From Candidatus Thorarchaeota archaeon (GTDB lineage Archaea; Asgardarchaeota; Thorarchaeia; Thorarchaeales; Thorarchaeaceae): a DNA stretch of 22,426 nucleotides. Location: NCBI GenBank assembly GCA_011364905.1, contig RDNZ01000045.1:1-22426 (forward strand). Direction: 5' to 3'. Made by a program: the position numbers and the translations under genes. This document shows positions 7,075 through 22,426 of the stretch, in pieces. The number at the start of each line of letters is the position of its first letter. Position 1 is the first letter of the stretch. Below the pieces are notes generated by a model. It was not told the origin of the DNA. It did not search any database and saw nothing but the letters and a program-made list of their open reading frames with translations.

Positions 7075-7482
7075 TCATGTGCTATCGCGTCTAATCAACG
7101 TAAAAGTAGTTGCCTCATCGATTGATAGCTTCTCTTCTGTTAGAAGTTCTCTGAGAATCTCTAGGTATTGATTGTTCAGTCTGAATCCGTCTCCCTCTAC
7201 GACCCTTAATGTTGCTCTATGATTCCACTCAGCATCTGGATCATCTACGGAATGGAGGGTCACAACATAATTCTCTCCTGCTCTCCCCATCATCAGTCTT
7301 ATAGTACTATAAGTGAGACCTTTCATCTCACTGCCAATAGAACGCTGAGCATAGATTTGAATTGCAGACATGAATGAACCAAACAGCTCTTGATTGACCT
7401 TTATGTTTTCAAGGCCAACTGACGCTTGCCGAATACCTGCTTCATCAAATACAATTATGCCCTTCAAGATGGCAACAACCAC
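7075..7482 (-). CDS. Longin-like / roadblock-related (profilin-like fold) small protein
   Basis: The order beta-beta (ILKGIIVFDEAGIRQAS), helix (QELFGSFMSAIQIYAQR), beta-beta-beta (MKGLTY, IRLMMG, YVVTL), helix is the longin topology. The LxGxFxSAI motif is common in Asgard longin-like proteins. Confidence 0.65.
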   Translation of the reverse strand: MVVAILKGIIVFDEAGIRQASVGLENIKVNQELFGSFMSAIQIYAQRSIGSEMKGLTYSTIRLMMGRAGENYVVTLHSVDDPDAEWNHRATLRVVEGDGFRLNNQYLEILRELLTEEKLSIDEATTFTLIRRDST

Positions 7483-7569: not shown

Positions 7570-7959
7570 TCACTGACCAAGAAGATCTCCGACTTCCTTT
7601 GCATATTTTCTCATTTGAGTAACTGCAAGACCCATGGATGTCAGATCCTTTGCCGCTCCCATCAGCAGAAACTCACCTGCATGAGAAAGAACCACAAACC
7701 CATCCTGTCCACGAACCACAACTTCGTAGAGTTCGCTCAGATCAAGTTTACTTGCTGCCATCTCTCCAGTCATTAAGAGAGCAGCACTCACCGCAGCCAT
7801 GAGGTCTGGGTCTGCTTCAGAGTCTTCCGTAGCAAAATAGGCGAGCTTGACTCCCTGTTTGCTTACCACAGCTATTGCATCAAGGTCCGCATAGTTAGTC
7901 AGACCCATCAATAGTTCAACAAGTTCCTTTTCCTTTGCAGGATCAAGATGAGATGACAT
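7570..7959 (-). CDS. Roadblock/LC7 (MglB/LAMTOR-like) domain protein
   Basis: AIAVVSKQGVKLA, DLMAAVSAALLMTGEMAASKL, EVVVRGQDGFVVL and MGLAVTQMRKYAKEV. GAGGT ribosome-binding site upstream. Confidence 0.9.
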   Translation of the reverse strand: MSSHLDPAKEKELVELLMGLTNYADLDAIAVVSKQGVKLAYFATEDSEADPDLMAAVSAALLMTGEMAASKLDLSELYEVVVRGQDGFVVLSHAGEFLLMGAAKDLTSMGLAVTQMRKYAKEVGDLLGQ

Positions 7960-7988: not shown

Positions 7989-8915
7989 TTATTTAGCTAC
8001 TAGCTTCTTGCCTTTTGTTTTGCCCTTCTTCTTTGCATCTGCGTCTGGTTCTTCTTCCAGCTCAGATCTGAAGAAGCTGATGAGGTCATCCAAGCGTTCC
8101 TTCATCTCAGCTTTGATTGGGCTTAAGATTGCATCCGGAGTTCCTTTGAGTAGCTCTATTCCTAGAACCCTGCCGTCTTTTACAATGACACGCGGAATGA
8201 ATCCCTCAGCCATGAATGTTCCCTCTGGTGGATCCTTCACTTTCTCAAATTTCCGCTCGACCTTCTCCTGGCCAAACACTGCTATCTTGTGCTCTGCAAC
8301 AGTGAAAAGCTCATTATAGACAATCAATAACTCCCTCTCATATCCCTCTGGCGGCTCAACGGTTTCAAGGTCTTTGATCATTGCTTGGATTTCCGCAGAG
8401 AGAGCTTGAGAGGATGAAGATGCGGATTGCGGTCTTGGAGAGGGTGCAGTCGTGGTTGACCTAGATGTAGGTTGTGTTGGTGGCCTAGGCGATGGAGCTG
8501 CAGATGTTGCTGTTTCAGGAGTAGAATCCACAGGTCTAGGCTTCGGTGGAGGCGATGAAGATGTTTCTGCTTTTGCTGTTGGTGGTTTCGGAGGCGGAGC
8601 TTTTTCACCTGGTTTTAGAATTCTCTCTGCCGCAGTTGAACCATCCAAAGCAGTGAAGAATGTGGGTGGCTCCTCGCCTTCGTCGAGGGGGCGTACCTTG
8701 AAGTGAAAACCGTACTCAGTTCTCAGATTAGTTGCAACTCGTGCTCCAATAAACTTCCTTCTGATACCTGCTTGTGTGCCCTTCCATAGGTAGATGCTCT
8801 TTGTTTCATCATCAACGACACAAACTACCATTGTAGATTCAAGGTCATCTTTGCCTATCTCGACCTCATTCAAGGTTCCATCTTCCAAAACCTCGTAGCC
8901 TAGGACCATGATCAA
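7989..8915 (-). CDS. Gelsolin/villin-repeat domain protein with Pro/Ser/Thr-rich linker, uncharacterised C-terminal domain and Lys-rich tail
   Basis: aa 1-91 form a canonical gelsolin repeat: LESTMVVCVVDDETKSIYLWKG...RKFIGARVATNL...LDEGEEPPTFFTAL. The linker APPPKPPT...SSSPPPKPRP follows, and the tail is KKKGKTKGKKLVAK. The start may be 8909. Confidence 0.85.
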   Translation of the reverse strand: MIMVLGYEVLEDGTLNEVEIGKDDLESTMVVCVVDDETKSIYLWKGTQAGIRRKFIGARVATNLRTEYGFHFKVRPLDEGEEPPTFFTALDGSTAAERILKPGEKAPPPKPPTAKAETSSSPPPKPRPVDSTPETATSAAPSPRPPTQPTSRSTTTAPSPRPQSASSSSQALSAEIQAMIKDLETVEPPEGYERELLIVYNELFTVAEHKIAVFGQEKVERKFEKVKDPPEGTFMAEGFIPRVIVKDGRVLGIELLKGTPDAILSPIKAEMKERLDDLISFFRSELEEEPDADAKKKGKTKGKKLVAK

Positions 8916-9093: not shown

Positions 9094-10218
9094 ATGGAAG
9101 AAACACAGAAGTATGTAAGCCCATACAAAAAGTTGTTTGATGAAACCAAGGACCTTAGTTTTGCAAAACTCCTTCTGGGTCTTGCTGTGTCAACATTGAT
9201 AATGCTCGGCTCAACTTGGGGCCTTCTTTCTTTATTGAATTTTTCAGGCGTTTTCAGCTTTGAGCCCTCAAAGTTTGTTTCATATACAACCTATATGCTG
9301 GAGGCTTCAGTTGGCTCTATTATTTTGGCACTTATTTTGTGCGGGATTCTGATCAAATGGCCACGAACCGTCAGCTTCTCACTACGATTACATAGAAGAG
9401 TGAAACACCATGCAGGAGATTATTTCATGTCTCCAGAGCCGGAGGATGAGAAACTTGGAGATGCCATTCGGAGATCCCTTTATGGATCAATACTCATTGT
9501 AGGCATAGCTTTGACAATCCTAGGACTGGACATGATACACAATACAACTGGCGGCGAGTTAATCTTTCTTGGCACAGTCCTGATGATAGTGAGCATTGTC
9601 ATTCTTCCAATTACTGTTATGTTATTCTATTTTGGTCCGTGGTTAATGAAGGAAGCCGGCTTGTTTCATCTTGATACAAAAGACAGGTCTCTAAGCAATG
9701 TTGGAGATGATGTTGAAGACATTCTAGAATTCTTTGCTGGAGTGGACATCGTTCTTGTATGGTTTGAGCTAACGTTAAATGTTGGTCAAGATGCGCTTTG
9801 GATTCCCATATTCATTATTTTAGTGGCACTTGGACCACTTTTCTCAATCATTCTAAACTTCACAATAATTTTCGTCTTTGTCAAGAAGAGAGCAACTCTC
9901 GCAATGATGCGTTATCTATCCGAGCGATATAACATACCCGATATGTTGACCTCACCTGGCTACATCAGAAGCCAAGTCATGACACTTGTTGAAAGAGAGG
10001 TATTCATGGTGGGTCCGGCGACGCCTCCTGAATCAATGGCACCTGTGGAGGAGGAGGTTTCAAAGGAAGCATCCAATGAGGAATCTCTACCCGAATCAGA
10101 ACCAGTGATGGAGCCACCTCCGGAACCCAAACGCGATCACATTCCTCCTCCACCAGGTGATCATGTTCCACCACCTCCTGGAGACAATAGTGAGTCAATC
10201 GCTGAGGATGATGGTTGA
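9094..10218 (+). CDS. Polytopic membrane protein (about 6 TM) with acidic, proline-rich C-terminal tail; function unknown
   Basis: ORF track starts at TTG 9079, and ATG 9094 is plausible. Several hydrophobic segments of about 20 aa. The tail is EPPPEPKRDHIPPPPGDHVPPPPGDNSESIAEDDG. Confidence 0.7.
   Translation: MEETQKYVSPYKKLFDETKDLSFAKLLLGLAVSTLIMLGSTWGLLSLLNFSGVFSFEPSKFVSYTTYMLEASVGSIILALILCGILIKWPRTVSFSLRLHRRVKHHAGDYFMSPEPEDEKLGDAIRRSLYGSILIVGIALTILGLDMIHNTTGGELIFLGTVLMIVSIVILPITVMLFYFGPWLMKEAGLFHLDTKDRSLSNVGDDVEDILEFFAGVDIVLVWFELTLNVGQDALWIPIFIILVALGPLFSIILNFTIIFVFVKKRATLAMMRYLSERYNIPDMLTSPGYIRSQVMTLVEREVFMVGPATPPESMAPVEEEVSKEASNEESLPESEPVMEPPPEPKRDHIPPPPGDHVPPPPGDNSESIAEDDG
10135..10185 (+). 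repeat. Two tandem 24-nt units encoding DH(I/V)PPPPG
   Basis: gatcacattcctcctccaccaggt / gatcatgttccaccacctcctgga, then gac. Codons have diverged while the peptide is conserved. Confidence 0.85.
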
Positions 10219-11259
10219 ATCCTTCCTGAAAGAAAATGTAACAAGCTTGTTTCCATTTGATCTTAGGCGTTTCACAAGGTCCTCATCATAGGTGAGTGCA
10301 ATTATTGGAATACCATTCAAGTCTAGGATTACCTTGAATGAACCAACTTGAGGTATGATCGACACAACATTTGCTACAATCTCACCTTCCGAATACGAAT
10401 CGGAAATCACGACATCCTCAGGCTTTACACTAAATGTTAATTTCGAGCCCATGTTTCCTGAGGTAGGTATAAGGAATAGGTTATCATTTACCGAAACAGT
10501 CACATGCTCTCCTGAAACTTCAACAATTCGTCCAGAGAAGATGTTTCCACTCCCAAGAAAAGTTGCTACAAAATCATTTGCCGGGAAATCATAGAGTTCC
10601 TCGGGAGTTCCGACCTGTTCAACAAGTCCATCGTTCAGAATTGCCACTCTATCAGATATGGCAAATGCTTCATCTTGGCTGTGTGTGACGTAGATTGTCG
10701 TAACACTGAGTTTTCTCTGAATCCGTCTTATCTCTTTCTGAAGCCGCTCTCTCAATTGCAGATCCAACGCAGACAATGGTTCATCAAGTAGGAGTAGATT
10801 TGGATTGGTCGCTAGAGCTCTTGCAAGTGCAACCCTTTGAGCTTCGCCGCCACTGATTTCAGATGTTTTTCTCAGCAACAAATGTTGGATGTCCAGAAGC
10901 TCTGCGAGCTCTTTCACTCGATTTACGGTGTCTTCTCTCGACCACCCAGCCATATCAGGTCCAAATGAGATGTTGCCGAAAACAGTCATATTAGGAAATA
11001 GCGCGATTGATTGAAAGACCATTCCAATGTTTCGTTCACGAGGCGCGACAGTAATCATGTCTTTCCCATCGAAAAGCAAGCCTCCATGAACATTTTCGAT
11101 AAAGCCAGCTACCATCCGTAGAGTTGTAGTCTTACCAGATCCACTGGGACCAAGAAGAGTAAGAAGTTCACCATCTCGCACTAGAAGGTCAATTGGCCCG
11201 ACTGTCGTTCCGTCGTCAAATTCCCGCAGCAATCCTCTTAGTTCAACTTCCACCATCAT
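10195..11259 (-). CDS. thiQ: ABC transporter ATP-binding subunit (thiamine/Fe3+/polyamine family) with C-terminal TOBE-like region
   Basis: Walker A GPSGSGKT, Q-loop VFQ, signature ISGGEAQR, Walker B LLLLDEP and H-loop VTH. The true start is ATG 11259 or 11256, after GGAGGTG and overlapping the thiP stop, not 11319. The symbol is assigned from context. Confidence 0.85.
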   Translation of the reverse strand: MMVEVELRGLLREFDDGTTVGPIDLLVRDGELLTLLGPSGSGKTTTLRMVAGFIENVHGGLLFDGKDMITVAPRERNIGMVFQSIALFPNMTVFGNISFGPDMAGWSREDTVNRVKELAELLDIQHLLLRKTSEISGGEAQRVALARALATNPNLLLLDEPLSALDLQLRERLQKEIRRIQRKLSVTTIYVTHSQDEAFAISDRVAILNDGLVEQVGTPEELYDFPANDFVATFLGSGNIFSGRIVEVSGEHVTVSVNDNLFLIPTSGNMGSKLTFSVKPEDVVISDSYSEGEIVANVVSIIPQVGSFKVILDLNGIPIIALTYDEDLVKRLRSNGNKLVTFSFRKDSTIILSD

Positions 11260-12893
11260 AAAGCACCTCCCGTACTGCCCTCTGAGATTCGTTCTATAGT
11301 CAGAAACGCGATGACACATACAATAACAAGAAAGAATGCAGATGCTCCAGCCTCAACATACGCTCGCACACCAAGATATTCATAGATTGCAACCGCAAGT
11401 GTGTAGTTCTGTGGCAATGCAATGAATAGGGTCGCTGACATCTCACCTATTGCCATGGCAAAAGCAAAAACAGCTCCAACCAGAATGCCCGGCGCAAGCA
11501 ATGGGAGTTCCACAAAGAGGAATCGCTGAATTCGTGATGCGCCGAGAGAGTCTGCCTGTTCTAAAAGAGCTGGATCTATCTTACTCATAGCTAACTCAAT
11601 TGCTCTTGCACTAAAAGGCAGTCCAATTATGGTCTGTGCTATGATTATTATTGGCCAAGGGTTTGTAATGAGTCCCGTAGGAACTGCTATTGCCAGGACA
11701 AGTCCATACGCTACCGTAATCGATGAAATTCCCAAAGGGAGTAGGATCATCGAGGATGCAAAAGTTGGTACGAATCTATGGTGGGACCTCATATCTAGGG
11801 CAAGAAGAATCCCAAGGATTACTGCAAAAACTGTGGCGAGTCCAGCATAGAACAGTGAATTAACAAGATAACGGAATGCTCCTTGGCCACCCAGCCTAAA
11901 TAGATTAGTAAAGCCCTCCAAGGTATAAACCTTCGCAACCGGGTCATAGACGGAAGCTCGAGCAATCGTGGCAATAGGACCTAAAACTAGCACCACAATC
12001 AAAGAGAGATATGCGGCAATGGCTACTCTCTCTCTCAAAGGATATCTATTGAAAGAGGTGGTTTTCATCGAGGCTGTTTTGCCGGTTTCGTTTTCCCGTT
12101 TTGTGAGTCTTACGTATGTGAAAGCTAGACTCAAGGTGATTACAATTTGCATGAGGGTGAGAGAGCTAGCCTCTCCGTAATCGAAAAGCCTGAAGGCATT
12201 CCAAATCTGAGCCTCAATAGTAATGAATCTCCCTTGACCGAACGCTAGTACGATTGGGAACGACATAAAACAGAACATAAATGTTAGAACTGCTGATGCT
12301 AGCAGTGAAGGCATCACATGGGGGAGGGTTATGTACCGAAGCCTCTGACGTGAACTCGCACCGAGTATCTCTGCGCTCTCCTCTATCTCTGGATTGAGAC
12401 GCTCCAGGGAAGCAGAAACCATTAGGATTACCAACGGAATATTGTAGAAGGTATGTGCCAGAATGATGCCGGGAATTCCTGTTGCTAAATTGAACACAGA
12501 TGTGCTCGAGCCTTGAATCCACATGAGAATCGAGTCGATGACTCCATAAGATCCAAACATTTCAAGAAATCCAACCACAACAACAATGGGTGGAAGGACA
12601 AAAGGAACTATCATCATTGCTCTAACCAATGATTTTCCTCTGAATCTCAGACGTGCAATCAAAAAAGCTCCGGGCAGACCGATCAAGACGGCCATGAGTG
12701 TGCTCAGAATCGCTTGACCGATAGTGAATTGAAGTATGAACCGGATGGATGGTGACATTATGGTTTCGAAAAATGAGGGTCCAGTAAAGAGATACAACGC
12801 GTTGACGAAGAAGACTGGAAAAACTAGGAACACGATAAGTAGCAGGAAAGGAAATGAGAGTATTGCATAGTTCAGGATTGTTCGTGCGTTCAA
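11256..12893 (-). CDS. thiP: Thiamine ABC transporter permease (two fused permease halves)
   Basis: Two EAA loops (EESAEILGAS, EQADSLGAS), VPFVLPPIVV, AHTFYNIPLV and AIGEMSAT. Directly downstream of thiB. Confidence 0.85.
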   Translation of the reverse strand: MNARTILNYAILSFPFLLLIVFLVFPVFFVNALYLFTGPSFFETIMSPSIRFILQFTIGQAILSTLMAVLIGLPGAFLIARLRFRGKSLVRAMMIVPFVLPPIVVVVGFLEMFGSYGVIDSILMWIQGSSTSVFNLATGIPGIILAHTFYNIPLVILMVSASLERLNPEIEESAEILGASSRQRLRYITLPHVMPSLLASAVLTFMFCFMSFPIVLAFGQGRFITIEAQIWNAFRLFDYGEASSLTLMQIVITLSLAFTYVRLTKRENETGKTASMKTTSFNRYPLRERVAIAAYLSLIVVLVLGPIATIARASVYDPVAKVYTLEGFTNLFRLGGQGAFRYLVNSLFYAGLATVFAVILGILLALDMRSHHRFVPTFASSMILLPLGISSITVAYGLVLAIAVPTGLITNPWPIIIIAQTIIGLPFSARAIELAMSKIDPALLEQADSLGASRIQRFLFVELPLLAPGILVGAVFAFAMAIGEMSATLFIALPQNYTLAVAIYEYLGVRAYVEAGASAFFLVIVCVIAFLTIERISEGSTGGAL

Positions 12894-12903
12894 CCTACTC
12901 CCT

Positions 12904-14046
12904 CTACGGAATCCTTGTGGCAGTCCATGAATCTAGCCAATTGTTTAGGTTTGTGGAGATTTCTGTTCGGTTGAGAAGAAGATTAAGCAAACTCACCTCA
13001 TTGGGATTGACAGCATATTGGTATACACTTGGCAGACTCAGGTCAGTCCGTATTGGATAGACCCATTGGTTGAGAGCAATTTCACTCTGAACAGTTGCAT
13101 TGAGGCAATAGTCAATGAATGCTTTTCCCAACTCAGGATTAGGGCCGTTTTTCACAAGCCCAACTCCTTCCACCTGCATCCATGCCCAGTGCTGATTATC
13201 ATAAAAGAACGGAGCCGCTGCTGTATCAGGAGGGCTTCCATAATAATAAGCCGAATAAGCTGGGTCTGTTCCATAACTGACAAGCAGATTTCTGCTCGGG
13301 TCCCCCGACCAAACCTCCCAAGCTTGATCCCAACCTTCTTGTACATTTATCTGATCCCTGACATCATCCCACCATGTGGTCCAATCTTGATGCAACAGCT
13401 TCTCATAGACTGCAATCTGCGAGAGCAAAAAGGACAAACCGGGACTACTATAGCTAGGATTCTCTGTAACCAGAGAAGAGGCAAACTCAGCATCTGCAAG
13501 GTCTGCGAAAGTTAGATTCCCAAGCTGTGGATGAGTTGTCGTGTTGATTGAGCTTGTTGAATAAATCAAGGTGATCAGACCAAAATCAAAAGGCGTTAGG
13601 TAATGCTCTGGATCCAGCAAATCTACAAAGGTTTCATTAACTAAACTTAGCATTGGCGATGTGTAAGGTTCAAGCACACTCTTTGCTGCATCTTGCAGAA
13701 TGAGGATATTGTCTATTCCAATCACAACATCTGCAAGGGGCCTAGACTTTTCAGCAACAAGCTTCGAGATTATGCCATTTGCATCAACATCGAGAAGTAC
13801 AATATCCACATCGACTCCATATTGCCTTTCAAAAGGTGCAAACACGCGTCCTAGAACAGTTTCAGCCCCCTCATCTCCATAGTCAAAGAAGCTACCATAT
13901 GTGTAGACTACAAACCTGGGTCTCCACCAAGTCACAGCGGCATAAACTGCAATAATGATGATTATACTGACTGAAGCCACAGCTATCATCTTTCTAGGGT
14001 CTCTTCTGACTGGGTACTGAGTCAAGCTCTGCCTCACCGAACTCAT
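12904..14046 (-). CDS. thiB: Thiamine ABC transporter substrate-binding protein (TbpA/ThiB), N-terminally anchored
   Basis: VYTYGSF, ADVVIGIDN, PFDFG, ENPSYSSPGLSFL, GWDQAW, VSYGTDPAY, QVEGVG and QWVYP are all TbpA-family motifs. Confidence 0.9.
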   Translation of the reverse strand: MSSVRQSLTQYPVRRDPRKMIAVASVSIIIIIAVYAAVTWWRPRFVVYTYGSFFDYGDEGAETVLGRVFAPFERQYGVDVDIVLLDVDANGIISKLVAEKSRPLADVVIGIDNILILQDAAKSVLEPYTSPMLSLVNETFVDLLDPEHYLTPFDFGLITLIYSTSSINTTTHPQLGNLTFADLADAEFASSLVTENPSYSSPGLSFLLSQIAVYEKLLHQDWTTWWDDVRDQINVQEGWDQAWEVWSGDPSRNLLVSYGTDPAYSAYYYGSPPDTAAAPFFYDNQHWAWMQVEGVGLVKNGPNPELGKAFIDYCLNATVQSEIALNQWVYPIRTDLSLPSVYQYAVNPNEVSLLNLLLNRTEISTNLNNWLDSWTATRIP

Positions 14047-14110: not shown

Positions 14111-15043
14111 GTGAGACCGCCATGTGAAATTGTACAGAGGGACTTTCTACCTGTCGTCAGAACACTAGTGGCTAGAGGCTTAAGGAATGCAGGATTTTCA
14201 CAGACTGAAATCGCTTTGAAGATGGATCTGACACAAGCTGCTGTAAGTAAATATCTGAATACACGGCTATCAAAAACACGAATGAACAGTGAATGCGAAT
14301 CTCTTGCTCAGAGATTAACAGAGATGATTAGGACCGGGGAGGTTGAGAGCGACCAGATTGTACATGAGGTTTGTTCAGTGTGCATGCGATCCCGCATTGG
14401 CTCTACTCTTTGCGAGATGCATAAAGACAAGGTGCATTCACTACAAGTGGCTAATTGTCAAATATGCTCTCAGCTTCTAGGAGGCCAAGATGAGGCTCTT
14501 TCTGAGAGAGCATCGGTCATAGGTGACATTCTTGAAGCTCTAAAGATCATTGAGGCTTCTGATTCTTTCGAAGTCATTGTGCCTCAGGTTCGAGCTAATT
14601 TTGTTGTATGTAATGACTTGGCTAAAACGTACAAGGAGGTTGTGGGAGTGCCAGGTCGAATCACTATTGTCGAGGGTCGAGCCCGTGCACTTGTTAGTCC
14701 TCAATTTGGCGCGTCACAACATACTGCTCGACTTCTGTTGCAAGCCAAGCAGACTTGGCCAGGAGTTCGAGCCTGCCTTTGTGTGAGCGGCAGAGAAAGC
14801 GTTGTAGAAAGTGCAGGTAAGTCTGGTTTCAAGATTCTCTCCATGGAGAATCCTGAAAGCGATGCATCAAAGATTGCAGAATCTCTATCTAGGACAAATC
14901 ACCTTCCTGGTCCAAAAACCACGTTTCCATCAATCCACATACCAGGCGGTTATGGTGTAGAACCAATTCTCTATCTTTTTGGTCCCAGTGCGGTTGAACT
15001 TGCACAAAGGAGTATCAAGCTTAGCGATATCGTGACACTGTGA
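14111..15043 (+). CDS. thiR: ThiR-type transcriptional regulator (XRE-like HTH + Cys/His-rich linker + ThiN-like thiamine-phosphate-sensing domain)
   Basis: MRPPCEIV...LPVVRTLVA, HTH SQTEIALKMDLTQAAVSKY, and ThiN motifs VPQVRAN, VVGVPGRI, PQFGASQHTA and GGYGVEPILYLFG. GAGGTG ribosome-binding site. Divergent from thiBPQ. Confidence 0.88.
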   Translation: MRPPCEIVQRDFLPVVRTLVARGLRNAGFSQTEIALKMDLTQAAVSKYLNTRLSKTRMNSECESLAQRLTEMIRTGEVESDQIVHEVCSVCMRSRIGSTLCEMHKDKVHSLQVANCQICSQLLGGQDEALSERASVIGDILEALKIIEASDSFEVIVPQVRANFVVCNDLAKTYKEVVGVPGRITIVEGRARALVSPQFGASQHTARLLLQAKQTWPGVRACLCVSGRESVVESAGKSGFKILSMENPESDASKIAESLSRTNHLPGPKTTFPSIHIPGGYGVEPILYLFGPSAVELAQRSIKLSDIVTL

Positions 15044-15987: not shown

Positions 15988-18156
15988 CTACTGCTCTTCG
16001 TCAGTCATAAGGAATGGGAGGACCCAATTAGCAAATACAAGCGAGCTTCCGATTGCCCAAACGCTAGCTAAGTTCACATGCCACAGCAAGAAAGCCATGG
16101 AGTTAACACCCAGAATGAAGAAGGTGCCAGCTACAACCGCGAAGAATACAATATCAAGTATAATTACTGGTCGAATTGGATGTCCTTGTCTTTTCCTGTA
16201 AATAGGAATAAGCAAAGCCACCCCGAGTAGCAACAAACCACTCGCTATCTCTTCAACTCGCAGAGAAGCAAATCCAAACACCCTTTCAACCTCTGAACTT
16301 TCACCCTCAGGTGTAAACATAACGACCTTGACTGTATGTTCAGCTTTTGTGTAGTTGCCCACATCAATATAGAATGTGAAGGTTGCATCTGTGATATTTA
16401 TTGTGCGATTCTGATAATTCTCTAAAAGAACATTATCGACATAGATGGAGGCTTGAAGAGACGACCAGGTTGTGTCAACATCAACTACGAATTTTGCATT
16501 GCCAATAACCACGTCTGCAGTCGTTGCGAACCTTAAAACAGGCGGACCGTGGTTGTTGACAACCAAGACCATTGTGAAGGAATATGAGTGACCGAAGTGG
16601 TCGTAGGCTTTGAAAGTCACATTATGCTCGCCTTCGTCAAACGGAGTTGTGTTGAAGTGAATTGTATTCGTCCCTTCAAACACAGTCACATTGTCTACAT
16701 CAGGCACAAGAATCCCATCGACATAAAGGCAAAGAGTACCATCATTGTATGGAGAAGCGATTCTAACTTCTATATTCGCATCGCCTGAAATCTCATTGTA
16801 GTTTGCTAGACCTATTACATAAAGGCGTATGTTATCCAAGAATATCAATGCAATATCAACTGAAAATGACACTCCTTCTTCGGTAAACACAGTGATGTTG
16901 ACAAGATGATTTCCGTTTTCATATCGACTAGTGTTTAGGGAGTAGTTACCGGCTCCCACAGGCTCCATCTTTGCAATCCAATCAGGATCTAACTGGCCAT
17001 CCACTGATATATTCAGGTAGACATAGCTATAGGTCGATGTTATGTTAAGCCACAGGTCTGTGACTCCACTGACGGTGTCTAGCTCTTTAGGGAGAATGAT
17101 TTCCAGTCCCGGCAAACCATGATTGTTTACAAAAAACTCAACATAGTATGTACCGCGAGCATATGTGCCAGACACATTGTACTCGCACACAAGCGTGAAG
17201 TTCAGCATTCCCTCAGGAAGGCCTGTAGTATTTATCTGAATTGTCTGCTCTCTTATCCCAATCGATGTTTTGTTGAAATCCGGATCGACAATCCCGTTAA
17301 CATATAATGTTAGGTTCAATGGTTCATAGTTCGAACCTATCAAGAGGGTGAGGTTGAACACACCTGATACCGTAGAACCATAAGCTGGCGCTTGATGATC
17401 TATTGTAATGGGTTTTCCATCGTTGTCAATGAGATATTCAAGGTACATCTCTGAGTAAAAGCTCGTTGCCAGAACATGGTACTCGAAGATGAATGTGAAG
17501 TTGTTCCAACCCTCCCATAATCCACTCGTGTCCACTATGACACCTATGTCACCCGAGCCTATGAGTAATGGTGTGTACGGCGCTTGTGGAACACCATCTA
17601 CAAGTAATGTCAGATTCAAGTTGCCATAGTCGTGAGTAACATTGAGATTAATGGTCTCAGTGCCACTGAGTGTGCTTCCATTTACAGGCGTATAGAGCGT
17701 TGCTTGAAAATTGAAACCGTTGTTATCAACAAAATAGAGGAGATAGTATGTTTCCTTCTCCGCGAGATATTCAAAGAAGAGTGTGAAATTCAACATCCCT
17801 TCCGGTTGCCCAATGGAATCAACAGTAATGGCTTGGGCGCCTGTTGTCAGATTTGCATGGTCATATCCACTATAGACTGAACCCTCAATTAGGAGAGTGA
17901 GATTCACACTTGAGAAATCAGATGTGATAACGATGTTAATATCAAAGGTTCCTGACACCGTACTCCCATTTGCAGGGCTTGTCAGCGCCACAGTAATGTT
18001 GGGTGAGTTGTATCCTGAAACAGTAAGGGGATCGGTAGGTTTGATCAGATTATGGTCATTTTGTGTGGCAAATTGCGCTTGCATCTGAGTGTGTGCGGCT
18101 CCCACAAACATTATTGTTACTATAAAGAGTGCAAGCAATCTACTCGTTGTTCTCAT
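15988..18156 (-). CDS. Cell-surface glycoprotein with about six Ig-like repeats, signal peptide and multi-pass C-terminal membrane anchor
   Basis: Signal peptide MRTTSRLLALFIVTIMFVGAA. Repeats start PANGSTVSG, PVNGSTLSG, PAYGSTVSG, PKELDTVSG, LANYNEISG and TTADVVIG, and share nltl.vdG and EG..NFT/HxV. Many N-x-S/T sequons and about three C-terminal hydrophobic helices. Confidence 0.8.
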   Translation of the reverse strand: MRTTSRLLALFIVTIMFVGAAHTQMQAQFATQNDHNLIKPTDPLTVSGYNSPNITVALTSPANGSTVSGTFDINIVITSDFSSVNLTLLIEGSVYSGYDHANLTTGAQAITVDSIGQPEGMLNFTLFFEYLAEKETYYLLYFVDNNGFNFQATLYTPVNGSTLSGTETINLNVTHDYGNLNLTLLVDGVPQAPYTPLLIGSGDIGVIVDTSGLWEGWNNFTFIFEYHVLATSFYSEMYLEYLIDNDGKPITIDHQAPAYGSTVSGVFNLTLLIGSNYEPLNLTLYVNGIVDPDFNKTSIGIREQTIQINTTGLPEGMLNFTLVCEYNVSGTYARGTYYVEFFVNNHGLPGLEIILPKELDTVSGVTDLWLNITSTYSYVYLNISVDGQLDPDWIAKMEPVGAGNYSLNTSRYENGNHLVNITVFTEEGVSFSVDIALIFLDNIRLYVIGLANYNEISGDANIEVRIASPYNDGTLCLYVDGILVPDVDNVTVFEGTNTIHFNTTPFDEGEHNVTFKAYDHFGHSYSFTMVLVVNNHGPPVLRFATTADVVIGNAKFVVDVDTTWSSLQASIYVDNVLLENYQNRTINITDATFTFYIDVGNYTKAEHTVKVVMFTPEGESSEVERVFGFASLRVEEIASGLLLLGVALLIPIYRKRQGHPIRPVIILDIVFFAVVAGTFFILGVNSMAFLLWHVNLASVWAIGSSLVFANWVLPFLMTDEEQ

Positions 18157-18614: not shown

Positions 18615-21056
18615 GTGAATCGACAGGTCAAGGTACTAGTTTGGCGGTGTCAATTATTGACCGTTGATGAAAACAATGCTCCATTGGTCAAGATATGGTC
18701 TCCTTCTGAAACACTCTCTAAACGTGTTCAGAAACTCCGAGATCATTTCTATTCATTCAATGACCGTGATGAAACAAATGAACCATACGCATTTACAACT
18801 GGCACTGAGTGGGATGAGGTTTACTCAGTTCATGACTGGGCGAATGAACCCGCAATCTATCGATTTATGCCTTCAATTGACCAGACCCTCAAGGCCATGT
18901 CAGTGAAAGTTGATCTACCTGAAGATTATTGGGATCATAGCTTGGTTCTTCGACGTGCGATTTTCTTTCATGAGGTCATGACCAAATACATGCCTGTTAT
19001 TATATTAGATGGAGAGCTCATTGTTGGCTTCAACTTCAACACTGCTTTGTCCCGGTCTCTCAACAAATCAGAAACCAAGTCCAGAAACAAGGAAATGAAC
19101 AGATGGTTCAAAGAAGCCTCCAGACTTAATGCAAATGGAGTTGGGACTGCCTCATCCGTTCCTGGACATATCATTCCAAACTATGCCAAAGTCATGAAGA
19201 TTGGAATGAGAGGATTGGCAGAGGAATACACGCAGCTTTTGGAAGATGATATCACCAAAGTGCACAAGGAGTTCATTGAAGCATTGATACTTAGCTGTGA
19301 AACAGCTAGAGATGTTGGGCTTCGCTACTCGAAGAAAGCCCATGAGCTTGCCAAATCCGAAGCGAATCCTGTTCGAAGGGAGGAACTGGAAAAGATAGGA
19401 GAACTTTTGAAACGAGTGCCTTGGGAGCCCCCTAGAACATTCTGGGAAGCGCTTCAATCCTTTTGGATCGTTCACATACTTGTCATGGCGGCTGAATCCT
19501 ATCCGGGTGCTGGATTGTCACATGGACGATGGGACCAGTACATGTATCCGTTCTACAGGAAAGACCTTGATGAGGGTAGACTGACGCGGGATGAGGCAAA
19601 GGAACTGCTACATTGCTATTGGATTAAGCACAACTACGTCTATGACTATCAAGGCCGCCTGGGGATAAATCAGGGAATAAATTCCAGCTTTGGTCAGCTC
19701 ATGACTTTAAGTGGTTGCGGCGCCAATGGGGAGGACCTCTCCAACGATCTCACTTGGCTGGCTCTGGAAGTCATTGAGGAGATGAATCTGTTTGAGCCGA
19801 AACCGAATATCCGATTACACAAGAACACACCGCAAGATTTCCTACTAAGAGTAGCACAGATGGTGTCAAGAGCTCAAGGGTCTCCCTTCTTGATGAACTT
19901 CGATGAGCACAGTATCGATGGATTGGTCTGGCAAGGCGTTCCGAGAGATCGAGCTTGGGATTATGGTATAGTTGGTTGTCTTGAGAACACAATGCAGGGA
20001 AATGATCGCTCAGATACGGTTGATGTTAACATCAATCTAGCAAAGGCAGTTGAGCTTGCTCTGAGTGATGGAAAAGACACTGCTTCAGGTATTCAGTTTG
20101 GCCCAAGAACAGGAGATCCATTGACCTTCACAACTTTTGATGACTTCATGAATGCAGTGAAGGCGCAACTCAAAGCGCTTGTTACTCTTCTCGTCAATGC
20201 TGGAAATATGGCAGATACTTTACGCGCTAAGTATCAGCCTGTCCCGTACCTCAGTGCGCTCATGGATGACTGTGCTGTGAACGGGAAGGATGTAAATGAA
20301 GGAGGGACCACTTGGAACTTCAACACATTAGAGGGCATGGGGATTGCCACTCTTGCAGATTCGGTCGCAGCAGTCAAGAAGATGGTCTTTGATGAGAAGC
20401 GTATTAGTATGAAAGACTTACTTACCGCTATCGAAACAAACTATGAGGGCTACGAGGAAATAAGACTGTTATTGAGGTCAAAAGCTCCCAAGTTTGGTAA
20501 TGATGATGAGTATGTCGATGAAATTGCTAGGGAGTTATCGGTTTACTGGGCTGAGGAAGCAGCGAAGCATGAAAATCCTTTGACAGGCCGCAAATATCGC
20601 GCAGGATACCTATCTTGGAATTACTATGTTCCACTTGCGCCATTGACTGGAGCGACCCCTGATGGACGACGTCGTGGTGACTTTCTCTCCGGAGGTGTAG
20701 GCGCAGTCCAAGGTATGGACTCCAATGGGCCGACTGCATCGATCCGTTCTGTTGGAAAACTGAATCTTCAAACCGTACCCAACGGAGCTTCTCACACAAT
20801 TACAATCAGTCCATCAATGGTTCAGACTCCTGAGCATATTGAGAAACTTGCGGCACTACTTCGTGCTTGTAATGAGGTTGGGGGAACAGCTCTTCAGATT
20901 AATGTCATTGATGCAGAGACTCTCCGCGACGCTCAACGAAATCCTGACGCATATTCAAACCTCATGGTGCGTGTGACCGGATACAATGCATTCTTTACCC
21001 AAGTCGGGAGAGAACTACAAGAAGAAATCATCACCCGAACGGAGCACTCAATCTGA
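18615..21056 (+). CDS. Glycyl radical enzyme (PFL superfamily, single-Cys non-PFL type), substrate unknown
   Basis: Gly-radical loop LMVRVTGY, Cys loop IVGCLE, and GELIVG, GRWDQY, APKFGNDD, ATPDGR and LQINV. The start may be TTG 18657, after GGCGGTG. Confidence 0.93.
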   Translation: MNRQVKVLVWRCQLLTVDENNAPLVKIWSPSETLSKRVQKLRDHFYSFNDRDETNEPYAFTTGTEWDEVYSVHDWANEPAIYRFMPSIDQTLKAMSVKVDLPEDYWDHSLVLRRAIFFHEVMTKYMPVIILDGELIVGFNFNTALSRSLNKSETKSRNKEMNRWFKEASRLNANGVGTASSVPGHIIPNYAKVMKIGMRGLAEEYTQLLEDDITKVHKEFIEALILSCETARDVGLRYSKKAHELAKSEANPVRREELEKIGELLKRVPWEPPRTFWEALQSFWIVHILVMAAESYPGAGLSHGRWDQYMYPFYRKDLDEGRLTRDEAKELLHCYWIKHNYVYDYQGRLGINQGINSSFGQLMTLSGCGANGEDLSNDLTWLALEVIEEMNLFEPKPNIRLHKNTPQDFLLRVAQMVSRAQGSPFLMNFDEHSIDGLVWQGVPRDRAWDYGIVGCLENTMQGNDRSDTVDVNINLAKAVELALSDGKDTASGIQFGPRTGDPLTFTTFDDFMNAVKAQLKALVTLLVNAGNMADTLRAKYQPVPYLSALMDDCAVNGKDVNEGGTTWNFNTLEGMGIATLADSVAAVKKMVFDEKRISMKDLLTAIETNYEGYEEIRLLLRSKAPKFGNDDEYVDEIARELSVYWAEEAAKHENPLTGRKYRAGYLSWNYYVPLAPLTGATPDGRRRGDFLSGGVGAVQGMDSNGPTASIRSVGKLNLQTVPNGASHTITISPSMVQTPEHIEKLAALLRACNEVGGTALQINVIDAETLRDAQRNPDAYSNLMVRVTGYNAFFTQVGRELQEEIITRTEHSI

Positions 21057-22030
21057 TGCCTACATCTGGAATCGTTACTAATATTCAGCGGTGTTCAACG
21101 GAGGACGGACCGGGTATCAGGACCACAGTCTTCCTGAAAGGTTGTCCAATGAAGTGCCTTTGGTGCCATAATATCGAAGCAATTGATCCTGAGTCTACAC
21201 TTGTTTGGTACGCGGTGAAGTGTATAGGCGCCCAATCATGTGTGCGAGCGTGCCCAGAAGGTGCTCTTGAGCTGACACCCGACGGACTTCAGATAGACAG
21301 AGAAAAGTGTGCGGTCTGTGGGGACTGCGAGGACGCATGTCCTACAGGCGCAGTCAAAGTGATGGGAAAAGTCTGGTCTTCAGAAGACCTTGTGCAAGAA
21401 CTACTACGCGATAAAGTGTTCTTTGAAACCTCAAATGGTGGAATCACACTATCGGGTGGTGAAGCAACCTATCAAGCAGAGTTTGCCATAGAGGTTGCTG
21501 AAAGGCTCCAGAGTCAGGGTGTTCATGTGGCTCTTGATACGTGTGGTTATTGCAGCGAGAAAACAATGAGGGACTTTCTACCGCATGTAGATATGGTTCT
21601 TTACGACATGAAGACAATGGATCCCGTTAAGCACAGAGAGTATACGGGTGTCCCTATTGATAGGGTGCTATCGAATGCTCTGATTGTCGCTGAAAGCAGG
21701 AAACCAGTATGGATTCGAACCCCCGTTATTCCTGAGCATACTGATGATGACAAAAACATCAGAGCAATAGCGCGTTTTATTCTTGATAATATGCCAACAG
21801 TAGAGCGGTACGATCTGCTTGCTTTCAATCGGATGTGCATTGACAAGTATGCATTGTTTGATCTGGAGTATCCTCTAAAAGACTATGACCTCATGACGAG
21901 AGACCGCATGGAGAGATTGGCTCACATTGCACGAGAGGAAGGACTTGAGAATGTGTTTTGGTCGGGGATGACGAAGGATTCGAGAACAAAGGACTATTCG
22001 GATGACCAGGAGGTTAAGACCTGTGGGTAA
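21056..22030 (+). CDS. Glycyl-radical enzyme activating enzyme (radical SAM with ferredoxin insertion)
   Basis: DGPGIRTTVFLKGCPMKCLWCHN (CxxxCxxC), ferredoxin motifs, GGITLSGGE and DTCG. TGATG overlap with the GRE stop. Confidence 0.95.
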   Translation: MPTSGIVTNIQRCSTEDGPGIRTTVFLKGCPMKCLWCHNIEAIDPESTLVWYAVKCIGAQSCVRACPEGALELTPDGLQIDREKCAVCGDCEDACPTGAVKVMGKVWSSEDLVQELLRDKVFFETSNGGITLSGGEATYQAEFAIEVAERLQSQGVHVALDTCGYCSEKTMRDFLPHVDMVLYDMKTMDPVKHREYTGVPIDRVLSNALIVAESRKPVWIRTPVIPEHTDDDKNIRAIARFILDNMPTVERYDLLAFNRMCIDKYALFDLEYPLKDYDLMTRDRMERLAHIAREEGLENVFWSGMTKDSRTKDYSDDQEVKTCG

Positions 22031-22426
22031 TATTGTTTTAGATCAAGAACTCGTTAATGTAATGAAAGAATTCGAGGTGCCAAAATTCATGGCCACTAAG
22101 GATGTGGAGGGTGAGCCCAATGTTGTCCCAGTCTTATCGTGGACTGTTTATGATAACAACACCCTTGTTTATGGCGACTTCATGACATACAAATCAAGAA
22201 AAAATGTCAACAATGGTAATAGACAAATCTCAATTCTTGTTGTTTCATCAAACCTAGATAGCTGGTTGATTAAGGCTGATTTTGAGTCATATCACCACAA
22301 TGATGAAATCTACGAATTCATCGCACAGACACCACTATTTCGCTATAATCAATACACAAATGCTCGCGGCGCTGGTGTCGCAGAGGCTCTTTGGGCGAGC
22401 CAGAAATATGGCATATCCAAGATAAA
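22023..22426 (+). CDS. Pyridoxamine 5'-phosphate oxidase-like (split-barrel flavin-binding) protein, truncated by the window end
   Basis: Not in the ORF track. GTG 22023 follows GGAGG (22009-22013) and overlaps the activase stop. The frame stays open to the window end: MGNIVLDQELVNVMKEFEVPKFMATKDVEGEPNVVPVLSWTVYDNNTLVYGDFMTYKSRKNVNNGNRQISILVV... The ATxDxxGxPNVVP and KSxxN motifs are PNPOx-like. Confidence 0.75.
   Translation, partial: MGNIVLDQELVNVMKEFEVPKFMATKDVEGEPNVVPVLSWTVYDNNTLVYGDFMTYKSRKNVNNGNRQISILVVSSNLDSWLIKADFESYHHNDEIYEFIAQTPLFRYNQYTNARGAGVAEALWASQKYGISKI

Follow-up and report, generated by a model that had tools for sequence, protein, structure and literature searches.

The 3′ end of the Candidatus Thorarchaeota contig RDNZ01000045.1 carries, all on the forward strand, a gene for a glycyl radical enzyme (GRE), a gene for its radical S-adenosylmethionine (SAM) activase and the 5′ half of a third gene, whose product we refer to as P3. 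The window analysed is the entire contig (22,426 bases), which belongs to a metagenome-assembled genome of 3.08 Mb in 95 contigs that is 81% complete (G000); its best protein matches are to Thorarchaeota, a lineage of the Asgard archaea. The three genes are a self-contained conserved operon and make up a GRE system that is uncharacterised and has an accessory protein of a new kind. We propose, with a probability of about 0.55, that this operon combines an eliminase-type GRE and its activase with a GRE-linked, cofactor-binding P3 that takes part in a redox-linked step.

The GRE gene occupies positions 18657–21056, encoding 799 residues from a TTG codon at 18657, while the longest open reading frame (ORF) begins at a GTG at 18615 and encodes 813 residues. 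Since the orthologues are mostly 799 residues long and the N-terminal 14 residues of the longer ORF are unconserved, comparison of the sequences makes the TTG the most likely translation start and the GTG less favoured. The activase gene (21056–22030, 324 residues) follows without a gap, the GRE stop codon overlapping its start in TGATG at 21054–21058. P3 (22023–22426) starts with a GTG at 22023 that lies inside the activase gene, 8 bases ahead of its stop codon (TAA, 22028–22030). The contig end cuts the P3 gene after 134 of about 276 codons, leaving the N-terminal barrel only, the first of two domains in what is predicted to be a tandem split-β-barrel protein. This fragment is 63–79% identical to the gene after the activase in six loci of the same genus, and a full-length orthologue (locus L022) has 276 residues. 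Within the GRE, the candidate catalytic elements are Gly184-His185 (19164–19169), a pocket segment E294-S-Y-P-G-A-G-L-S-H-G-R305 (19494–19529), the cysteine loop G454-C455-L456-E457 (19974–19985, encoded by GGTTGTCTTGAG), in which a single catalytic Cys is followed two residues later by Glu, and the glycyl radical loop R786-V-T-G789-Y (20970–20984), recognised by its motif and by an 84-sequence alignment described below. The segments AESYPGAGLSHG (from residue 293), GINSSFGQL (from 354) and YLSWNYY (from 665) are further landmarks. A first-pass annotation made from the letters of the contig had reported these gene overlaps, the GCLE and RVTGY loops and the three segments, and all of its coordinates were correct on re-reading.

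The protein is a bona fide member of the GRE superfamily, with a PFL-like barrel (Pfam PF02901, 497 bits for the 813-residue ORF), a C-terminal Gly_radical domain (PF01228, 96 bits), the RVTGY motif and the GCLE cysteine loop. Its placement within the superfamily, based on scores against hidden Markov models and against structures in the PDB, is less conventional, as it falls under every NCBIfam cut-off. The highest of these scores, 534 bits against the PFL2/glycerol dehydratase subfamily model TIGR01774, compares with a cut-off of 678, and the equivalog models for HypD (485 bits, cut-off 1100), HpsG (459, cut-off 1000), CutC (418, cut-off 1050), HpfG (400, cut-off 1000), indoleacetate decarboxylase (329, cut-off 1100) and 4-hydroxyphenylacetate decarboxylase (HPAD; 277, cut-off 1150) are missed by wide margins, so that the protein belongs to none of these groups. 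A second GRE of the same genome (C78:29342–31648, L163), 34% identical to the first, scores 736 bits against TIGR01774; the low score is thus a trait of this particular GRE and not of the lineage. Pyruvate formate-lyase (PFL) was also considered and rejected, in agreement with the first-pass annotation, as the protein has a single Cys in place of the adjacent Cys-Cys pair of that enzyme and scores 128 bits against TIGR01255, for which the cut-off is 994.

The closest solved structures are eliminases, namely glycerol dehydratase (1r8w, 417 bits), propanediol dehydratase (5i2a, 408 bits), CutC (397 bits) and HypD (391 bits), with eliminase structures together spanning 350–417 bits, compared with 260 bits for MasD (9o8u), 202 bits for the α subunit of benzylsuccinate synthase (BSS; 4pkc) and 107 bits for PFL structures. 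Cys455, Glu457 and His185 match Cys433, Glu435 and His164 of glycerol dehydratase, so that both the Cys-x-Glu loop and the leaving-group His of the eliminases and dehydratases are present, all of them invariant in the subfamily defined below. The retention of Glu457 and His185 makes the enzyme probably a 1,2-eliminase. Its substrate is another matter. The diol-binding residues of 1r8w, which we take to be His281, Ser282 and Asp447, align with Ala, Gly and approximately Val, and Asp278 of HypD aligns with Ala; the segment E294–R305 stands where glycerol dehydratase has its His281/Ser282 segment and HypD its Asp278 segment. With the diol residues replaced and TIGR01774 not reached, the enzyme is not a glycerol or propanediol dehydratase. 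These replacements, together with the absence of a matching equivalog, bear out the first-pass statement that its active-site segments are not recognisable as those of any of the named eliminases.

The segments that set this GRE apart are shared by an entire subfamily. We aligned it with 83 full-length GREs that adjoin P3 or fall in the same similarity cluster and whose pairwise identity to it extends down to 42%. Across these 84 sequences 133 positions are at least 97% conserved, and the near-invariant stretches comprise G-H185 (84 of 84), E294-S-Y-P-G-x-G-x-S-x-G-R, Q-G-I-N-S-x-F-G-Q-L, V-G-C-L-E-N-T-x-Q-G-x-D-R-S-x-T-V (its first seven residues, V-G-C-L-E-N-T, in 84 of 84), R-x-G-Y-L-S-W-N-Y and R-V-T-G-Y-N. 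In the pocket segment the residues E, S, Y, P, G, G, S, G and R show little or no variation, and the pocket segments are almost unchanged from Asgard archaea to bacteria; what the first-pass annotation singled out as distinctive in one protein is therefore the conserved signature of the whole group. The GREs that adjoin P3 are 42–85% identical to that of the contig, while other GRE paralogues of the same genomes are only 28–38% identical. Judged by these alignments, the subfamily is sharply defined and uncharacterised and looks isofunctional, with pocket residues that are polar and peculiar to it and a catalytic apparatus of eliminase type. The most likely reaction is a radical 1,2-elimination of the dehydration type on a polar substrate.

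The activase is a GRE-activating enzyme by its match to TIGR02494 (317 bits, cut-off 174), with Radical_SAM, Fer4_12 and Fer4_7 domains, the motif C30-x3-C34-x2-C37 and a two-cluster ferredoxin insert. It is the single activase match in its genome, and because no second activase was found there, it probably also serves the GRE paralogue on contig C78.

Association of P3 with this GRE subfamily extends far beyond the genus, as the gene-neighbourhood comparison suggested by the first-pass annotation revealed; the outcome that the annotation had named as refuting its proposal, a flavoprotein not conserved beside homologous GREs, did not occur. A profile search recovered P3 relatives in 312 clusters from Asgard archaea, Nezhaarchaeota and bacteria, and we examined 130 loci, of which 50 are from Asgard archaea (10 around GRE matches and 40 around P3 matches) and 80 from species-representative genomes of Dehalococcoidia, Anaerolineae, Deltaproteobacteria, Myxococcota, Planctomycetota, Nitrospirota, Hydrogenedentota, Acidobacteriota, Actinomycetota, Bacillota and Bathyarchaeia, spanning about ten bacterial phyla besides Bathyarchaeia. 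The order GRE-activase-P3 was found in 48 of these 80 loci, activase-P3 in nine, GRE-P3 in six and P3 alone, often at a contig end, in 15; of the remaining two, one contained a GRE fragment only and one had no match above the reporting threshold. The Asgard loci follow the same pattern, P3 standing after GRE-activase in most. A GRE adjoining P3 was always of this subfamily, with 42–85% identity to that of the contig in Asgard loci and mostly 50–60% elsewhere. P3 directly follows the GRE, with no activase between, in 13 loci, and in many bacteria the operon consists of exactly these three genes. Where P3 was separated, one subfamily GRE was encoded elsewhere in eight of ten genomes (5/5 with activase-P3 pairs, 3/5 with P3 only). 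Among 400 Asgard genomes we detected P3 in 180 and a GRE of the subfamily in 177; 160 genomes have the two together and 203 have neither, while 20 have only P3 and 17 only the GRE. Contig breaks explain several of the discordant genomes. The module is also present in the cultured Candidatus Lokiarchaeum ossiferum, where its activase is named 'choline trimethylamine-lyase activating enzyme' in the database.

Genes beside the trio are heterogeneous and include creatininase-family, major facilitator superfamily (MFS), B12-radical SAM and penicillin amidase genes, among others. Several Dehalococcoidia (among L075–L083 and L087) carry a creatininase-family gene (312 residues, PF02633) between GRE and activase, and P3 is followed in L087 and L091 by another, distant GRE (932–943 residues, 36–37% identical). 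In at least two bacterial loci the first or second gene after P3 is a B12-binding radical SAM gene (L104:9220–10653, L143:7844–9259), and a family of about 477 residues similar to it recurs in six loci.

Gene loss within the genus indicates which of its two neighbours P3 serves. Three genomes of the same genus (G004, G016 and G011) lack both GRE and P3 at a locus that otherwise retains its gene order: ThiN, GNAT, a 722-residue protein, activase, GNAT, an ACT-domain protein, MFS and Memo. The retained activase is 76–80% identical to that of the contig and is the sole activase in each of the three. At least two GRE paralogues were detected in G000, G004 and G016, and the search of G011 matched one; the activase is evidently common to the GRE paralogues of the genus. 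Immediately upstream of it, all three genomes preserve the last 31–36 codons of the GRE (61–81% identity, E values of 1e-11 to 1e-13), in gaps of 507 bases (L156:8215–8721), 316 bases (L157:7922–8237) and 283 bases (L158:3146–3428), and P3 has left its first 36 codons behind in one of these genomes (E = 2.5e-7). Because these relics remain, the events were deletions and not insertions in the other genomes; the GRE-end stretch left behind may carry translation signals of the activase. The three genomes do not form one group in a tree of the activase, where G016 stands beside two trio-bearing genomes (support 100/99); this topology requires at least two independent losses. That both flanking genes were repeatedly deleted while the activase between them was kept argues strongly that P3 belongs functionally to the GRE and not to the activase. 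The same deletion pattern marks the downstream GNAT-ACT-MFS genes as a separate unit. The 722-residue protein (15988–18156, reverse strand) has only faint CBM35/Ig-like matches and lies directly upstream of the GRE or the activase in 13 loci of the genus; its gene is retained where the GRE is deleted.

P3 is barely visible to domain models, as the contig fragment scores 15.1 bits against Pfam PNPOx_N (threshold 28.1) and one full-length relative 25.5 bits, and its relatives in the ESM Atlas fall only into unnamed or PNPOx-like clusters. We therefore rely on an AlphaFold2 model of a full-length orthologue, computed from a 29-sequence alignment, which predicts two split β-barrels joined by a linking helix (predicted local distance difference test score 85, predicted template modelling score 0.84). 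The N-terminal half of the model resembles the FMN-binding protein 3in6 (Z 15.3), HupZ (Z 14.6) and FMN-bp 1axj (Z 13.2), where FMN is flavin mononucleotide, and superposes on the FMN-bp/HupZ folds with root-mean-square deviations of 2.1–3.0 Å over 113–127 residues (Foldseek E about 5e-6). The family profile independently matches HupZ (E = 1e-7), 3in6 (E = 3e-4) and HutZ (E = 3e-3), and its alignment with FMN-binding 3in6 reveals a common K-T-x-x-N stretch in the N-terminal barrel. The predicted fold of the orthologue and these profile matches place P3 in the split-barrel superfamily, most likely as a protein that binds one FMN via its N-terminal barrel. The first-pass description of a PNPOx-like flavin protein is upheld as to the split-barrel fold and falls short as to a simple PNPOx-like protein, given that the orthologue is a 276-residue tandem, by its model a pseudo-dimeric double split barrel. 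Single-barrel forms of about 120–150 residues were found in three Asgard genomes of two families (L070/G149; L071/G041 and L154/G036), after GRE-activase in one genome and about 20–24 kb from the GRE in the others, which fits descent of the tandem P3 from an ordinary homodimer. P3 has no conserved Cys. The cyclic di-GMP receptors YcgR, MrkH and PlzA were rejected as relatives, the resemblance being a two-barrel coincidence with deviations of 14–19 Å. Fused longer forms of P3 were absent from a length-filtered search, which is weak evidence, and long 'activase-P3' and 'P3-glycosidase' ORFs (L146, L121, L115) were out of frame with the matches and are artefacts.

We posit the following sequence of events. 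The activase would install the glycyl radical on the GRE at Gly789, a thiyl radical would be relayed to Cys455, and a radical 1,2-elimination on a polar substrate would follow. P3 would be a cofactor-binding partner, probably holding one FMN in its N-terminal barrel, and, as a subunit of the GRE or its near neighbour in the pathway, would take part in a redox-linked step, by supplying or removing electrons or by converting the substrate or product. The genes, their motifs, the fold, the co-inheritance and the joint loss are what the analysis shows; the elimination chemistry, the binding of FMN and the redox role of P3 are all things that we infer. The first-pass annotation had envisaged elimination followed by an FMN- or F420-dependent redox step; the eliminase features lend support to its first half, while a flavin or F420 as cofactor and a redox step after the elimination are possibilities only: the fold also serves for haem, with HupZ as the top match, and the two activities may follow another order. 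A more tentative idea, which we consider possible but doubtful, is that this would be the first PFL-type GRE to depend for its reaction on a partner subunit of its own that carries a flavin (or haem). Such dependence would imply a net-reductive or redox-coupled radical transformation, a kind of reaction so far known to us in the wider superfamily only from class III ribonucleotide reductase.

A number of observations weigh against this proposal. GRE active sites are buried, which makes direct electron delivery from a flavoprotein not obviously feasible. In sequence P3 comes closest to HupZ, which binds haem; its second barrel is degenerate and lacks the K-T-x-x-N stretch, and its most conserved motif, R107-Y-N-x-Y111, lies in a low-confidence loop of the model. 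Instead of FMN, P3 may bind F420 or haem, or have no cofactor. In about a dozen loci an activase-P3 pair is not accompanied by the GRE, and the GRE occurs in a few genomes that lack P3 altogether, among them a 100%-complete Loki-type genome (L160, G299:C33) with an intact subfamily GRE, no adjacent activase and no P3 detected anywhere. Nor does the context point to a pathway: in the 130 loci the trio has no additional neighbour whose family is conserved across phyla, and no Rfam riboswitch was found in ten bacterial loci or the contig, where the sole match was sub-threshold, snoRNA-like and inside the GRE start.

In an alternative reading, P3 has no catalytic activity and is a small subunit of the GRE or regulates it, in a structural or gating capacity, with no redox role or one of sensing only. 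Co-inheritance and co-loss with the GRE, translational coupling of the genes and the lack of any other pathway gene conserved nearby are what such a protein would display. In the model the R-Y-N-x-Y motif is in an exposed loop, as for an interaction surface, and split-barrel proteins of about 230–250 residues that bind proteins or haem (4n7r_C, 6m09) are among the structural matches. The β and γ subunits of BSS, the γ subunit of HPAD and the tandem split-barrel protein that binds glutamyl-tRNA reductase are precedents. We nonetheless regard this explanation as unlikely, since the N-terminal barrel retains the stretch common to FMN-binding barrels, the single-barrel versions would make ordinary cofactor-binding homodimers, and the GRE-P3 complex is hypothetical.

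Two further explanations fare worse. P3 could donate electrons to the activase, replacing flavodoxin in reducing the [4Fe-4S] cluster for SAM cleavage; it usually stands directly after the activase, with its start overlapping that gene, the separate activase-P3 pairs mentioned above would fit, and small split-barrel FMN proteins can serve as electron carriers. We consider this improbable, because the genus has deleted P3 with the GRE at least twice and kept its sole activase although the remaining GRE paralogues still need activation, because P3 adjoins the GRE directly in the 13 loci without an intervening activase, and because all five genomes checked with activase-P3 pairs carry a subfamily GRE elsewhere. 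The GRE itself could be a pyruvate or 2-oxoacid formate-lyase (PflD) or an alkyl-/benzylsuccinate synthase, as genome papers have proposed for GREs of these lineages. Names given in databases, among them 'pyruvate formate lyase family protein' and 'formate C-acetyltransferase', point that way, 2-oxoacid/pyruvate formate-lyases have been invoked in Asgard metabolism (Imachi et al. 2020, PMC7015854; PMC11291895), and fumarate-adding enzymes have been proposed in Hermod-, Thor- and Lokiarchaeota, Chloroflexi and Bathyarchaeota (PMC8163825, PMC6472368). The GREs in these four papers may be of other subfamilies, and their functions were assigned without activity tests. For the enzyme studied here such a function is very improbable in view of the single Cys where PFL chemistry has a pair, the low scores against TIGR01255 and against the PFL, BSS and MasD structures relative to eliminases, and the invariance of the dehydratase-type Glu and His. 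The 130 loci contain no conserved small-subunit gene of the X-succinate-synthase kind.

We thus return to an eliminase-type GRE with a cofactor-binding partner in a redox-linked step. The GRE superfamily is small, and each newly assigned subfamily has uncovered new anaerobic chemistry. The present orphan subfamily is widespread, occurring in about 40% of the sampled Asgard genomes as well as in Dehalococcoidia, Planctomycetota, Myxococcota, Nitrospirota, Hydrogenedentota and Bathyarchaeia. Were the GRE to need a flavin or haem partner subunit, the module, being so widespread, would also take the place of the 'formate-lyase' or 'alkane-activating' step in the maps now drawn for the metabolism of Asgard archaea and sediment Chloroflexota. 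P3 offers a concrete handle for the biochemistry of its GRE.

Elsewhere on the contig, a thiamine-type ATP-binding cassette (ABC) importer is encoded on the reverse strand by genes for an ATPase (10195–11319), a double-domain permease (11256–12893) and a solute-binding protein (12904–14046). It adjoins a forward-strand gene for a ThiN-domain protein (14111–15043); together they look like a thiamine salvage cluster, which keeps its synteny within the genus and has no relation to the GRE. A Roadblock/LC7 protein (7570–7959, reverse strand) lies between two ORFs without a family match (7075–7482 and 7989–8915) and may represent one of the Asgard small-GTPase/Roadblock modules.

Among characterised systems, the closest comparison is with the B12-independent-type pair DhaB1/DhaB2 of Clostridium butyricum (1r8w) and with propanediol dehydratase (5i2a). 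The GRE shares with them the ten-stranded GRE fold family, the Gly and Cys-x-Glu loops and the His that aligns with His164/His166, and its activase has the same two-cluster ferredoxin insert. Alignment to 1r8w and 5i2a is confined to residues 181–812, however, the N-terminal 180 residues having diverged, and unlike DhaB1/DhaB2 the system has replaced the diol-binding residues, possesses invariant pocket segments of its own, stays below the TIGR01774 cut-off and includes a conserved third gene. HypD, CutC, IslA and HpsG/HpfG are likewise eliminases of the Cys-x-Glu type with a dedicated activase, and the GRE scores 350–397 bits against those structures, yet they are not known to have a split-barrel partner, and the GRE lies far below the equivalog cut-offs of HypD, CutC and HpsG, with Asp278 of HypD replaced by Ala. 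P3 for its part shares the fold of its N-terminal barrel and detectable homology with FMN-bp of Desulfovibrio vulgaris (1axj), Swol_0183 (3in6) and HupZ/HutZ, from which it differs in being a fused tandem of about 276 residues with a degenerate second barrel, its own R-Y-N-x-Y loop and a tie to a GRE. In line with the first-pass annotation, which knew of no characterised GRE with a PNPOx-like partner, literature searches turned up nothing relevant on a partner of a GRE that is a split barrel or binds FMN, and we know of no precedent for a GRE-specific one. The nearest functional parallel is with the β and γ subunits of BSS and the γ subunit of HPAD, the latter of which carries Fe-S clusters: like them, P3 is an extra co-transcribed, GRE-specific protein, possibly with a cofactor, and unlike them it has an unrelated fold and no conserved Cys.

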